NCBI GenBank assembly: GCA_045641605.1 | Contig: JAZUHG010000017.1 | Location: 13,711-77,710 of the forward strand | Reading direction: 5' to 3' | From: Phoenicibacter sp. | GTDB taxonomy: Bacteria; Actinomycetota; Coriobacteriia; Coriobacteriales; Eggerthellaceae | DNA: 64,000 nt | In this document: positions 1-64,000 of the stretch, piece after piece | How the letters are laid out: each line of letters begins with the position of its first letter | How positions within the stretch are numbered: the stretch's first letter is position 1 | Made by a program: the position numbers and the translations under genes | Notes under the pieces: generated by a model | The model's input: only the letters and a program-made list of their open reading frames with translations | What the model was told of the DNA's origin: nothing | Database searches by the model: none

Positions 1-1
1 G

Positions 2-502
2 AATGATATATATTCAATCGTTCAAGAAATTAATCAAGAAGCAAAGACAGAGTTTTCGAACTTAGAAGGCTCGGATTTTGCAGCGGTATCTGATGAGTAT
101 TCTATTGATTCAACAGCCATTTCGCACCTACAGGATGTTAAATCATTATTCGCGAATGTAAAGATCGCTTTTGGTATCTGCCTTGTTGGGGCAATTATAT
201 TTTTGATCTTATTATTGGTCTTCTGTGGCAGAAGTGCTTTTGGACGTGCTTTGATGTGGTCTGGCTTGATTGTTTTGATTGGCTTGGTAATCTTAGCTGT
301 TTGAGCTATTGCCGACTTCAATAGCATGTTTAATTGGTTACATTCGCTGTTTTTTGCACAAAATAGTTGATTCTTTAGCGGAAAGTCATTGTTAATCTCT
401 ATGTATCCAACCGCATTTTGGGTTGGTATGGCTGTAATTTGCATTGTAGTTTCTGCTGTTTTATCAACAATTTCGTTAACTGTCGGAAAAATTATCAAAT
501 AG
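2..502 (+). CDS. Integral membrane protein, TIGR01906/DUF1461-like (5' partial, runs off window start)
   Basis: Frame is open from the window edge to TAG at 500-502 if 2 in-frame TGA are read as Trp. The tail '...[11 protein letters not shown]...[31 protein letters not shown]' and TM stretches resemble this family. The antisense 154-aa ORF 34..498 is judged spurious. Confidence 0.5.
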
Positions 503-509
503 GGGTTTT

Positions 510-59450: not shown

Positions 59451-59566
59451 TAATTGCTATATTTAAGTTCGTGTTTATAATAAGAATTTTTGCATTTAGT
59501 ATGCTTACTTTTATGTGTTTATTTGATATAATAAAAAAGATTATTATTTAATATAAAGGAGTAATT

Positions 59567-62500
59567 ATGCATATCAATACTAAATTTTCTAATAAGTGTC
59601 TATTGTTTGCGATTGTTACTGTGTTTTCTATTATAGTATTCGAATTATTCTTTGTTCTGTTTACTAATAATTTCGCTATTGCTAATTCAAATGAAACCCT
59701 GGTTTATTCTCAAAATAATGACCCAGACCCTTATTATGGCACAAAGGAATATTGAAACGAGCATTTTGGTCCTCATGAAGATAAATACATAGATAAAAAT
59801 ATACCTGCAGGAACGACTATAGGTAATGCTTCGGGTGGTGAAGTTGCCACTTATTTTATAGGTGACGATATTACGATTTCGTCAACAAATCCCAGCCAGC
59901 CTTGTCTTATTATTGCCGGTAATGTGGATTTATGTTTTGAAGATGGTCATAGTTTAACATTAAAAGTTGCTGATAGCGTAAATGGTGTTGGTAGTGCGCC
60001 AGATATCCTTCTTACAAAAGGCAATTCGCTTCATATTGTAGGCAAAGGGGATTTAAAAATTCAAGGTAGTTCTGTCAATGTCGATAAATCTTATGTAAAA
60101 GGACAGGATGGAACTCAAGGATCTTGATATACACAGTATTATAAGTATGTTGTTTTGGGTTTCCCAGGTCGCGGCGGAAATGGTTCAGGTGGTGTTGGAG
60201 CATTAATAGGAACTTATGGTGGCGCCGGTGGTGCTGGTGGTTATATAACTAATCCTAAAGATGATCGTGAAGAGATGGTTGAACAAGGCCATTATGGAAG
60301 TGGTACTGCGGTTCAACCTGGTGGCACTGGTGAAGCATCTGCAGTTTCTGGGGATTTGTCTATATCTGGCAATGTAGCGCTATCTTTAACTCCCGGGACA
60401 GTAAGATATACAAACTCACTAAATAATGAAGCCCTAAATGGTGTTTATGGGCCCAGAAACAGACAATATACTGGTAAAACATTTGGGATTTGAGATTGCT
60501 ATAATTTTATTGGATCAAATGGCGGAGGAGGGCAAGGCGGTTTAGGCTTTGCTGGCGCAATTTTTGGCTCTGGAGGTTCTGGCGGAGCAGGAGGTGGCTG
60601 CGGCGGAGAAAATGGTTTTGATTATACTAATTATCAAAATTATTGTTATCCAGATGGTGGTGGTGGTGGAGCTGGTGTTGGTTCCGCTAGCACTTATGGT
60701 GGAACCGCCTTTCCACGCAAGTCAGATTCTGACCAATTCCCTGATGGCGCAAAAGATGGAGAAAATTATGTTGCTGGGACCAGTACTGCTCCAGGTAACG
60801 GAGGGAGGCCTTCTGGTGGTGGAGGCAGATATCAAAATGGTTACGGCGTAGAAGGTGGGAAAGGCGGATTTGCTGCTGTTGCTGGTTTAGCAGGAAATTG
60901 TTTTGCTATTCCTGGTTTATTGCCAAAAGTAGATAAGGTTTCCAGTTTTATTTCTGATAGAAATGGTCAAGAGAGTGACCGCTATTTGGTTTATCCGCAA
61001 GATGAGTGTAAAATTGTTCTTGATGGTAGCTTACAAGATGATGAATATATTTATAGCTATTCTGGTCAACCTATTTTTCCTGATTATAAGGTTATACATG
61101 TGCCAACAGGTAATATTATAGATGATGATTGTTTTTTTGAGGTTAAATGAGAGAATAATGACAAACCCGGCATGGCAAAACTAATTATCAAAGGCAATTC
61201 TTCTTTTAGCACCACACAGGCAACTATTGGCCAGTCGATGTTTACTGCTTCTGGGGTAATAGAAGTTCAATTCAGAATCGCTAATATTTTTGATGTAAAA
61301 AATTTAACTGTCGCATCTAAAGTTTATAATGGTGAGCCAATTTCGTATCAGGGTGAACCATACATTGTCGATGAAAAGCAAAGACCAATAACAGACTTAA
61401 CAATTGATGATGTTGTTTTTGAATATAGTAAATTTAATTCTGAATTAAATATATACGAAAAAATTAATTACGTCCCAAAAGATGTAGGTGATTATTCTTT
61501 GATCTTTTCTATTAATAAAAAAGGCTATGAATTTTATGTGTCATTAACCTCAATTAAGTTTTCTATTACTATTGCTGACATAACTATTAATAAAGATGCC
61601 TCCGAAGGACTTAAGATTGAAAAAGTTTTTGATGGGACAATTGATGCTGGAAATGAAAATTTGTCCGGTTCATTAACCTTTGACAATATCGCAGAGGCGG
61701 ATAAAAATAAACTTGAAATTTTTCCAATAATTTCTAAGTTTACATCTGAAGACGTTCATGATGAAAAAATTGTTTGTAATCTAAGAATTAAATGTACCGA
61801 CGATAAGGACTTACTGAAGAATTATAATTTAGTAGATGATACTACGGAGATTCAGTATCGTATTTCGCAAAGAACTATTAATGTAGATTCTGTCAGCGCA
61901 AAAAATCGTACATATATAGCAGATAACTTTAATGTAGAGGTGGATGATGTTAAATTTTCAAATTTAGTTGAAGGTGTAAGTTTTGATCGAGATTCTGAGT
62001 GGATTATCGAAGAAGGAAAAATTACTGATGAAAATGTTGATCCTGGCCGTCACAATTGTTCCTGCAAAATTACTAATAAGTATGAAAATTATACTTTTTC
62101 AGACGGTCAAACAATTACGTATAACTTTATCGTTAATATTTATGGTGAGCAAGTTGCACACCCAGTGGCTTCAGAAACAGAATTTTATTACAATGGAAAA
62201 AATCAAGTTTATGATGTAAAAGCATATCCAGGATTGTATACAGTTGAAGGAAATACAGGCACGGAACCTGGCACTTATACGGCTATATATAAGCTGGCAG
62301 AAGGAAAGAATTGAGCTGATGTTGAAGAAAGTAAAAAATTTGATCCTTATGAAATTACATGGGAGATTAAAAAGCATAAGCCTATTGTATTTGATAATAA
62401 TTTTATTACACAAGCTGTTGCCGATAAAGATCAAGTTGAATTTGAATATAAAATTAATGACAAACCTGAGGATATGAGTATCTCTAATGTAAATTTGGGT

Positions 62501-64000
62501 ATTGAAGAAGGTGAAGAATATATTGATAGTTATCAATTGAGTGAGGATGGTACTAAGTTACTATATTCTTTGTCAAGCGAGGCCAAGCCTAATAGTTCTA
62601 TAAAGTTTAAAATTTCTCTCCAGTCTGACTTTTATGATGATTCAATTATCGAGGTTCAAGTTAATTTAGTAGATAAATATAATGTTAGTTTAACTGGTAT
62701 TTATTTTTCCGACAAGTGTTATGATAAACAACCAATTTCTTTTGAGGGCAATGTATGTGCACTTGTTACAGATATGTATGCTATAAATAAGGATATATCT
62801 GATAAAGTTAAAAATGACCTCATTTTTGATTACTATCGTCTTGTAGGCGCTGAATATATCCATATTGGTGACGAGGCTCCAAAGGATTGTGGGTCTTATA
62901 AAGCTATTGCTAAAATTAAAGAAAGCAATAGTTTTGGGGCTGGTATGTCTAGTGAGTTAAAATTTGAAATCAAGTTCAATAGTCAAGATATAATTGTTTT
63001 TGATGATGTAACTGAATCTCGTTGTTATGCAATAGAAGATTTAGACTATGTTGGAAATTTGAATATTATAGATAGTATTCCAGAAGGTGAAAATTATCAA
63101 GTTGTTATTAAAGAGATTGATGATAAACAAGCTTTTATTGACACAATTAGCATTGATCATGATGGTGAAGTGCATATTAAATTTAATCAAGGCTCATTAA
63201 AGCCGGATAAATCAATATCTGTTATTGTCAGTGTTTTGTTTGATAATTATTTATCACAGCCGTTAACATATACTTTAAATTTGGAACCGAAAAAAACTTT
63301 AAGTATTGGTGGCATTACAATATATGACAAGGGCGAGTATGACGGAGATTATGTGCCCTGAGATGGAAAATTTTATATCAAGGATGGAGATACGGACTTG
63401 ACTGATGAGTTGCTTGAACAAAAACATGTAAAATTAATTTACAGAGATCATGATTCTGACCGAACATACGATGAGCCACAAGTTAATGCAGGAATTTATG
63501 ATATAGAAATTCGCATTGTTGACTGAGATCAACTTTATACAGGAAGTGCGATTTATACTGCATCAATTGGCAGAAAAACTATTAATGTTGAATCAGAAGA
63601 GCCGTATGTTGGCGAAATTACGAAAGTGTATGATGCAACAACTTCACTGCCAACTGGTTTTACTGATTCACTGGAAATTGATGAAAGAGATATTCTTGAT
63701 AAAGATAAAGGTAAGGTGTTTGCAAAGTTTAATGCGTCTCAGTTTAGTTCCCCAGATGTTTACGAAGACAATGTTGATTGCGATACAGAACTCTATGGTG
63801 AAGCTTCAAATAACTATAAGCTTAACTTTGAAAAGGTTATTGCAAAATATAGTATCACTCCAAAATCATTAAATGTAAAAGAAGCAACTGCTGAAGCTAT
63901 TAATAGAGACTATGATGCCGATAATTATAAAATAGATATTAAAGTTGACATTGACGGTGTGATAGAAGGCCATGAGCCTAGGTATAGCTCGATTGCTCTC
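59567..64000 (+). CDS. Giant cell-surface protein (3' partial): N-terminal anchor/signal, glycine-rich module, then repeated YDG/MBG-like beta-rich domains
   Basis: A single frame is open from ATG 59567 (AAAGGAG SD) to the window end, with 7 TGA. Hydrophobic N-terminus 'CLLFAIVTVFSIIVFELFFVLF'. Gly-rich 60150-60900. Recurrent '...K(V/C)Y(D/N)G.P...' units such as 'SKVYNGEPISY', 'EKVFDGTIDAG', 'DKCYDKQPISF', 'TKVYDATTSLP'. Confidence 0.7.

Follow-up and report, generated by a model that had tools for sequence, protein, structure and literature searches.

The reassignment of the stop codon UGA to tryptophan in Eggerthellaceae genomes from the gut has been described by Parks, Chaumeil, Chuvochina and Hugenholtz (Microb Genom 2026 12(8):001767, PMC13462651; preprint of December 2025, 10.64898/2025.12.01.691617). 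Their mammalian gut reassignment (MGR) clade comprises Equivita, Gorillivita and Tapirivita, with 38 listed genomes, membership being judged by phylogenetic affiliation with Eggerthellaceae and with the JAUNQF01/CAVGFB01 genomes. Equivita and Gorillivita are recoded, and Tapirivita, to which GCA_030537355.1 belongs, is a standard-code genus. Among the 34 recoded metagenome-assembled genomes (MAGs), prfB is absent from every one, even as a pseudogene, and tRNA-Trp(UCA) is present in 32. The clade has a GC content of 31-40%, with 65-80% of stops being TAA (other Eggerthellaceae have about 59% GC), and it is missing both tRNA-Sec and selB (PMC13462651).

Outside the Mollicutes and the tiny endosymbionts, UGA read as tryptophan is rare. 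Here, we analyzed a stretch of 64,000 nucleotides (hereafter the window) that is translated with UGA as Trp from position 1 to 64000, and that carries 50 genes, 75 in-frame TGA codons and a GC content of 37.9%. Features shared with the Mycoplasmatales and Entomoplasmatales are the Trp reading of UGA, a preference for TAA, a small AT-rich genome and association with a host. Those orders belong to the Mycoplasmatota, however, and the window to the Actinomycetota, where the recoding is independent; the window also keeps TGG as the majority Trp codon (120 vs 75) and possesses clpP/clpX, the MEP genes ispG and ispH, and fhs/folD. The same reassignment, along with genome reduction and loss of RF2, is found in the insect and protist endosymbionts Hodgkinia, Nasuia, Zinderia, Stammera and Pinguicoccus. 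Their genomes are below 0.35 Mb, whereas those of the MGR clade are about 1-1.9 Mb (Parks et al., Table 2, PMC13462651), and the clade is gut-associated, with mostly intact cell-envelope genes and with sugar-utilization genes such as the xylose cluster of the window. In the Gracilibacteria/Absconditabacteria (table 25), UGA likewise specifies an amino acid in an uncultured lineage, but this is glycine and not tryptophan.

In-frame TGA codons across the window

The gene set was refined by trimming two over-extended starts and by including tsaE as well as the first, partial ORF, which gave 50 colinear genes and a coding fraction of about 97%. The 75 in-frame TGA codons are spread over 30 of these genes, and TGA accounts for about 38% of the Trp codons. 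Few are found in the most conserved genes, and none in the ten most conserved housekeeping genes. The first-pass annotation had given about 70 TGA codons in roughly 30 genes, which was accurate, and the ten coordinates it cited (597, 2085, 19453, 20487, 25420, 27808, 38038 and 53465, as well as 5707 and 10496 on the reverse strand) all proved to be in-frame TGA codons. No TAA or TAG lies inside the frame of any of the 50 genes. The 49 closed genes end in 33 TAA (67%), 16 TAG and no TGA, as had also been noticed in the first reading.

Re-calling under the two codes, with stop-to-stop ORFs 150 aa or longer, favored table 4 as anticipated, ORF coverage of the window rising from 77.5% (table 11) to 91.2% (table 4). 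In two standard-code sister loci of similar GC, coverage barely moved (90.8 to 91.3% for L081 and 92.6 to 92.8% for L083), so the TGA pattern of the window is more than chance. In-frame TGA codons were sought in the 30 called genes of L081 and L083, and none was found. Moreover, Pfam domains run unbroken across the TGA codons of the window, for example FGGY_N (1-245/245), MFS_2 (1-427/427), EPSP synthase (6-416/417) and TsaE (2-127/128).

If the TGA codons were genuine stops, the window would come from a decaying, pseudogene-rich genome of standard code; table 11 does interrupt 30 of the 50 genes, and relatives have fragmented gene calls in public table-11 annotation. Decay should also have left TAA or TAG nonsense codons and frameshifts, and neither occurs in the 50 genes. 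In addition, the TGA codons fall on Trp columns, they affect the essential gltX, argS, valS and der, and the same ones are kept in related genomes. Decay is refuted by the Trp columns and extremely improbable.

Sequencing or assembly errors might be suspected, the source being probably a MAG. Of 16 TGA codons, however, 14 are shared with locus L084 (assembly ERZ27247134), and others recur in L086 (ERZ27247133) and L089 (ERZ27279225), all of which are independent assemblies from other samples. Because of this recurrence the error reading is refuted, and we give it practically no weight at all; the differences between the assemblies are clean TGA/TGG exchanges.

TGA positions in individual genes

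In gltX (GluRS; 510..2099, forward strand), TGA occurs at 597, 810, 1791 and 2085. Two of the four, at residues 30 and 428, fall on invariant Trp columns (GluRS Trp counts of 118/118 and 112/117). Residue 101 is Trp in the closest relatives only, with Lys/Arg elsewhere, and residue 526, three codons ahead of the TAG, is a variable column. When solved-structure homologues were used alone, which are distant, Trp columns were obtained for one of the four GluRS TGA codons and one of the two in XylA; this mixed picture was resolved by aligning closer relatives. In argS (24403..26061, forward strand), the columns of the TGA codons at 25420 and 25474 are Trp in 119/120 and 114/120 homologues, respectively.

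The valS gene (15913..18567, forward strand) has a single TGA (17077, residue 389) among 22 Trp codons; three standard-code relatives have TGG at this site, and the recoded L084 and L086 have TGA. In der (EngA; 18571..19875, forward strand), the TGA at 19453 belongs to the G4 motif (NK-W-D), and Tapirivita has TGG in its place. The adjacent thiamine pyrophosphokinase gene, thiN (19878..20624, forward strand), carries a TGA at 20487 for which Tapirivita, L084 and L086 have TGG. The gene for a DUF2207 membrane protein (29428..31407, reverse strand) contains seven TGA codons; four of them align with the Tapirivita-like locus L083, which has TGG in every case.

In three genes, a TGA position aligns with Trp in solved structures. 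That of a FecCD-type ABC permease (5257..6309, reverse strand) at 5707-5709 matches Trp in HmuU, both FhuB halves and BtuC; that of the rRNA methyltransferase gene tlyA (27436..28191, forward strand) at 27808 matches the Trp of YGQLAW in M. tuberculosis TlyA; and that of xylA (37900..39216, forward strand) at 38038 matches Trp in all four solved xylose isomerases. The second TGA of xylA (38116, residue 73) is in a variable column that is not Trp in relatives. The neighboring xylB (FGGY kinase; 39226..40725, forward strand) has three TGA codons, spanned by the complete FGGY_N and by FGGY_C (2-197/198). The examples named in the first-pass annotation (GluRS, XylA, Der, ArgRS, TlyA and FecCD) thus each stand on a Trp column in homologues.

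The first-pass annotation had also proposed that read-through restores homologue-like C-termini in four genes. This holds for two of them, the Pfam domains of which are completed only in this way: tsaE (10436..10858, reverse strand), where reading through the TGA at 10496-10498 (residue 121) completes the TsaE domain, and thiN, where the TPK_B1_binding domain is restored. It is marginal for gltX and for the gene of a riboflavin kinase domain protein (53105..53485, forward strand; TGA at 53465, a putative Trp codon five codons ahead of the TAA), only three to five residues being added. TsaE residue 121 aligns with Lys in Tapirivita, so the TGA there would be a lineage-specific Trp.

Amino acid identity at UGA

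Standard-code relatives (L001, L002, L081, L083 and L088) could be aligned at thirteen TGA positions of the window. Eleven of these positions are TGG in the relatives, and the other two are Lys. Furthermore, the recoded relatives exchange TGA for TGG, or the reverse, at the same Trp sites. In ValRS, the TGA codons of four recoded genomes occupy ten different columns, nine of which are among the 22 Trp columns and are TGG in all standard-code relatives; at the tenth (column 285), one standard-code relative has TGG and the window has Tyr. These alignments show that UGA is read as tryptophan in the window, in agreement with the initial assignment. By extension, Trp would also be the residue at positions 101 and 526 of gltX, 121 of tsaE and 73 of xylA.

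Glycine (table 25, as in Gracilibacteria/Absconditabacteria) and selenocysteine are the known alternative readings of UGA, and many Eggerthellaceae beyond the MGR clade use selenocysteine. Glycine columns at the TGA sites had been named at the outset as the observation that would speak against tryptophan. No Gly-dominated column was seen at a TGA site in the alignments to homologues and relatives, Gly reaching 5/120 at one ArgRS site and 24/120 at the variable C-terminal site of GluRS, and no aligned TGA site has Cys. Moreover, 75 sites in 30 ordinary genes are incompatible with SECIS-dependent insertion, and the clade is without tRNA-Sec and selB (Parks et al., PMC13462651). Either reading is refuted by the alignment columns and most unlikely.

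Lineage of the window

ClpX, ValRS, Tig, ArgRS and GluRS have their closest homologues in Eggerthellaceae/Coriobacteriia. ValRS shares 66% identity with Eggerthellaceae MAGs and no more than 52% with any other locus, and the named matches of GluRS and ArgRS are Eggerthellaceae, Adlercreutzia, Slackia and Senegalimassilia. For ClpX, the search of genome contigs (motif IYIDEIDK) gave distant relatives, with identities of at most 59% among the matches listed, and the close ones were obtained by searching proteins. A Mollicute, or another of the classic table-4 lineages, would have the low GC, the small-genome features and table 4, and the recoding would then be the familiar one. But the best homologues of every tested protein are from Eggerthellaceae/Coriobacteriia, no Mollicute is among the named matches of the five proteins, and an Eggerthellaceae MAG shows synteny with the window. 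Such an origin has a negligible probability, as had been suggested from the sequence at first reading, and because of these homologues the recoding is independent of the one in Mycoplasmatales.

The MAG in question is GCA_030537355.1, which carries Tig and ArgRS homologues and has the gene orders tig-clpP-clpX-valS-der-thiN-tRNA-Asn and degV-hpf-argS in common with the window, tsaE lying upstream of tig in both. The tRNA-Asn(GTT) gene (20659..20733, forward strand) follows thiN and is at the same place in Tapirivita and in the recoded relatives. Against GCA_030537355.1 or Tapirivita-like contigs, identities of 63-76% were obtained for Tig, ValRS, Der and ArgRS. Overall, the proteins of the window are 96-100% identical to those of L084 (87% for one over-extended ORF), 79-95% to those of L086, 36-81% to those of Tapirivita and 39-76% to those of other Eggerthellaceae, the loci of which have a GC content of 53-65%. 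Tapirivita resembles the window in gene order and in the protein identity of conserved genes (52-81%), but it differs in its code, which is standard.

The homologues, the gene order, the GC content and the TAA bias place the window very probably in the MGR clade of Eggerthellaceae. Within it, Equivita is the genus we infer from the GC content, the synteny and the identities, which are higher with L084 and L086 than with Tapirivita; the share of TAA stops also agrees with this recoded genus. Equivita and Gorillivita share with the window the family-level homologies and the code change, the values found here (GC 37.9%, TAA 67%) falling within the clade ranges, and near-identical and related recoded contigs are present in public assemblies; nothing in the window is different in kind. 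The recoding is thus real and was read correctly in the first-pass annotation, which took it for possibly poorly described. It is no longer new, the reassignment having been published for this clade in 2025-2026 by Parks et al. (PMC13462651).

UGA as a terminator

All 49 closed genes reach a TAA or TAG. At the positions where the Tapirivita orthologues of Der and PpiB use TGA, the window has TAG or TAA stops, Der ending in TAG. UGA is not used as a terminator by any of these genes, and some residual termination at 2085 and 53465 is conceivable because both are only three to five codons before a TAA/TAG.

This bears on the idea that UGA is ambiguous, being mostly Trp but still ending some genes through a retained RF2 or through context dependence, as in an intermediate stage. 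The modest share of TGA among the Trp codons (38%), its absence from the ten most conserved housekeeping genes, the two TGA codons just upstream of a TAA/TAG and the stop function of UGA in the sister genus would all fit. No gene of the window requires a TGA stop, however, since every ORF reaches TAA/TAG at a homologue-like length; the TGA stops of Tapirivita are TAG/TAA here at the same position; and prfB is absent from the 34 recoded MAGs of the clade (PMC13462651). We regard ambiguous decoding as very unlikely.

The RNA genes of the 64-kb window are tRNA-Asn, tRNA-Ser(GCT) (43196-43286) and tmRNA (28897-29259), with no tRNA-Trp, nor was a tRNA-Trp present in the related loci retrieved. Neither prfB nor tRNA-Trp(UCA) was found in the window or in these loci, all of which are only parts of genomes.

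Proposed route of reassignment

In all likelihood, the window is a chromosomal segment of an AT-rich Eggerthellaceae with a reduced genome, in which UGA has been reassigned from stop to Trp (table 4). From the published description of the clade, prfB (release factor 2) would have been lost, with the consequence that nothing terminates at UGA, and a tRNA-Trp(UCA) would read both UGA and UGG beside the original tRNA-Trp(CCA). Mutation pressure toward AT would then make TGG drift to TGA at Trp sites, and the ancestral TGA stops would have been replaced by TAA or TAG.

A variant of this reading is that the window represents an MGR lineage outside the described genomes, which reassigned UGA on its own or is still completing the process, its UGA decoding being partly inefficient or ambiguous. 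A separate or unfinished reassignment is hinted at by the 38% TGA, by the lack of TGA in the ten most conserved housekeeping genes and by the disjoint ValRS sites: the window group has TGA at 389, 161, 403, 425 and 453, and the more distant recoded relative L090 at 285, 410, 411, 611 and 644, with no overlap. This variant is improbable, though less so than the other alternatives considered above; if true, it would add one more observation on the frequency and pace of recoding in the family.

Consequences for annotation

An actinobacterial recoding with standard-code sisters in the same gut habitats is a useful natural system for studying stop-codon capture. What it offers in this respect was already taken up when the clade was described in 2025-2026, and the practical use for annotation remains. 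In public collections, such genomes continue to carry faulty table-11 annotations, and pipelines should move to table 4 for them. The first-pass annotation had warned that the standard code would fragment genes, and this is what the public table-11 calls contain, as they break off at the TGA: ArgRS stops at residue 339, giving 339-aa fragments that end in '...HLIDI', and both valS and der are called as two pieces in a contig of 94.9% identity.

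UGA as a tryptophan codon

Open reading frames (ORFs) limited by TAA and TAG alone tile the window (37.9% GC) nearly completely, with the plus strand predominating. After shortening two over-extended starts, those of an ABC ATPase (4517-5257) and riboflavin kinase (53105-53485), and adding tsaE (10436-10858, minus strand) and a partial first ORF, the final set comprised 50 genes with 20,597 codons in total; coding sequence makes up about 97% of the window. This set contains 75 in-frame TGA codons, found in 30 genes, and 120 TGG codons; TGA represents 38% of the tryptophan codons. 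The closed genes end in TAA (33) or TAG (16), none in TGA. The first-pass annotation had counted about 70 such codons in about 30 genes by hand and seen no gene closing in TGA; both statements are accurate, and the ten codons it named are all TGA, in frame with the enclosing ORF.

The coverage by stop-to-stop ORFs no shorter than 150 aa rose from 77.5% under the standard code (table 11) to 91.2% with UGA read as tryptophan (table 4), a gain that is more than chance. At two loci of the standard-code sister lineage, with 34-36% GC, coverage was nearly flat (90.8 to 91.3% and 92.6 to 92.8%), while the recoded relatives L084 (74.4 to 89.5%) and L089 (39.3 to 95.1%) resembled the window. Several Pfam models also run unbroken over the TGA codons: FGGY_N (1-245 of 245), MFS_2 (1-427 of 427), EPSP synthase (6-416 of 417), and TsaE (2-127 of 128), and TPK_B1_binding spans the TGA of thiN.

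The examples of conserved tryptophans proposed earlier all hold. In deep alignments of close homologues, ArgRS residues 340 and 358 are Trp in 119/120 and 114/120 sequences, and GluRS residues 30 and 428 in 118/118 and 112/117. Comparison with solved structures placed the first TGA of XylA at a Trp of four out of four xylose isomerases, that of TlyA at a Trp of M. tuberculosis TlyA, and that of FecCD at a Trp of HmuU, BtuC, and both halves of FhuB. The C-terminal GluRS residue 526 lies in a variable column, and residue 101 is Trp in the six closest sequences only, with Lys/Arg in the rest. No Gly- or Cys-dominated column was found among the aligned TGA sites, which excludes both the reading of UGA as glycine (table 25) and selenocysteine insertion. 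Sequencing error is likewise rejected, because the same TGA codons recur in independent assemblies. At tryptophan sites UGA acts as a sense codon, and only TAA and TAG terminate genes in the window.

At the 13 alignable TGA positions, the standard-code relatives L001, L002, L081, L083, and L088 have TGG (11) or Lys codons (2). Most TGA-Trp codons originate from TGG, and recoded relatives show TGA opposite TGA or TGG in both directions. The new Trp residues at gltX 101 and tsaE 121 correspond to Lys in relatives; an AGA intermediate would be one possible route. Stop codons changed as well: der and ppiB end in TGA in the standard-code genus Tapirivita, and at the matching position of the window they close with TAG or TAA.

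Reading through TGA was also predicted to restore homologue-like C-termini. This is clear for tsaE and thiN. The claim is weak for gltX and riboflavin kinase, since only 3-5 residues are gained, and the near-3′ TGA codons of these two genes may, judging from their placement, retain residual termination. Public gene calls show the fragmentation expected under standard-code annotation: 339-aa versions of ArgRS, one of them from the window's own NCBI record, stop right before the TGA, and a near-identical contig (94.9%) has valS in pieces of 388 + 394 aa and der in pieces of 294 + 73 aa.

Affiliation and the published clade

The window does not come from a Mollicute, in line with what had been supposed. 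Among the matches listed in a ClpX scan (one genome per species), the best were uncultured Eggerthellaceae/Coriobacteriales MAGs at 58-59% identity; ValRS is 66% identical to the same MAGs and at most 52% to every other locus. Protein searches found closer relatives in a graded series of protein identity: L084 (96-100%, with one over-extended ORF at 87%), L086 (79-95%), the Tapirivita loci (36-81% overall, 52-81% for conserved genes), and other Eggerthellaceae (39-76%). The L084 contig (ERZ27247134, k141_230131, 188.9 kb) is colinear with the window, with 94.9% nucleotide identity over 21.4 kb. Homologues of Tig and ArgRS (62-64% identity) lie on contig JAUNNF010000001.1 of GCA_030537355.1, which shares the gene orders tig-clpP-clpX-valS-der-thiN-tRNA-Asn and degV-hpf-argS-prepilin peptidase; both also have tsaE upstream of tig, though the window carries it on the opposite strand.

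The reassignment is already known, and the window belongs to a clade described in detail. Parks, Chaumeil, Chuvochina, and Hugenholtz reported UGA-to-Trp for 34 MAGs of Eggerthellaceae recovered from the stool of mammals (Microb Genom 2026;12(8):001767, PMC13462651; preprint of December 2025, 10.64898/2025.12.01.691617), with 249-823 instances of UGA on Trp per genome and a UAA share of stops of 65-80%. In that study, Equivita is the code-4 branch of GTDB JAUNQF01 (GC 33-40%, mainly from equids); the other recoded groups are Gorillivita (CAVGFB01) and one further MAG. The recoded groups are separated by Tapirivita, which includes GCA_030537355.1, and the authors inferred that reassignment happened independently at least twice. 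The window agrees with Equivita in its GC, in the 67% of its stops that are TAA, and in where it stands relative to Tapirivita. All the literature that we found linking Eggerthellaceae with a genetic code change dates from 2025-2026. The first-pass observation is real and its interpretation, table 4 by an independent event in a non-Mollicute, is right.

The recoded MAGs lack prfB, even as a remnant, and 32/34 carry tRNA-Trp(UCA) (PMC13462651). From this description, RF2 would have been lost and a UCA-anticodon tRNA-Trp would decode UGA. The RNA genes of the 64-kb window are a tRNA-Asn, a tRNA-Ser, and one tmRNA; no tRNA-Trp was found there or in the related loci retrieved.

Distribution of TGA codons

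All 22 ValRS Trp columns have TGG in the standard-code relatives compared. TGA occurs at site 389 in the window, at 389 and 453 in L084, and at 161, 389, 403, and 425 in L086. The more distant recoded relative L090 (ENA ERZ27234646, GC 42%; valS at 10578-13235, compared with 15913-18567 in the window; 75% identity) has TGA at 285, 410, 411, 611, and 644, none of the five being common to the window group. This pattern fits separate TGA accumulation in different branches of the clade. L089 (ENA ERZ27279225), recoded and very AT-rich (31.6% GC), is possibly Gorillivita-like; it shares TGA with the window at the invariant GluRS residues 30 and 428, sites too few to separate ancestry from coincidence.

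The ten most conserved housekeeping genes have no TGA-Trp codons, and many lie in fast-evolving surface and accessory genes; this suggests either that highly expressed genes avoid TGA or that turnover is faster in genes under weak constraint. The TGA-free genes are tig, clpP, clpX, proS, ispG, ispH, fhs, folD, cmk, and hpf, and valS uses TGA for 1 of 22 Trp codons. TGA is the majority codon in the genes for YcaO (4/5), prepilin peptidase (3/4), PlsC (3/4), an ABC ATPase (3/3), and a surface protein (7/9).

Other genes of the window

The surface protein (59567-64000, plus strand) runs past the window end (>1478 aa). It carries a Gly-rich region as well as a hydrophobic segment at the N-terminus, and gave no Pfam match at E <= 1e-5. 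Seven TGA codons per gene are otherwise found only in two adjoining minus-strand genes, encoding a DUF2207 membrane protein (29428-31407) and an 864-aa protein with a glutamate-cysteine ligase family 2 domain and a circularly permuted ATP-grasp domain (31313-33907). A single ORF of 1114 aa (53553-56897, plus strand) combines a complete RecJ exonuclease (DHH, DHHA1, RecJ_OB) with a DEAD/Helicase_C (RecQ-like) helicase.

ClpX (14429-15910, plus strand) has 493 aa, compared to 433 aa in Tapirivita and 483 aa in the recoded L086 and L090; by eye, the additional stretch follows the N-terminal zinc finger. The tmRNA (28897-29259, plus strand) encodes the tag DKTTNGRLAMAA, and that of the Tapirivita-like L083 DKTNTNGAYALAA; the usually conserved C-terminal degron ALAA has become AMAA. 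Finally, a partial membrane-protein ORF (2-502, plus strand) lies directly upstream of gltX (510-2099, plus strand), placed as is the Lit/DUF1461 (PF07314) gene ahead of gltX in the standard-code L088. PF07314 is fused to GluRS in several Eggerthellaceae homologues of 805-819 aa.
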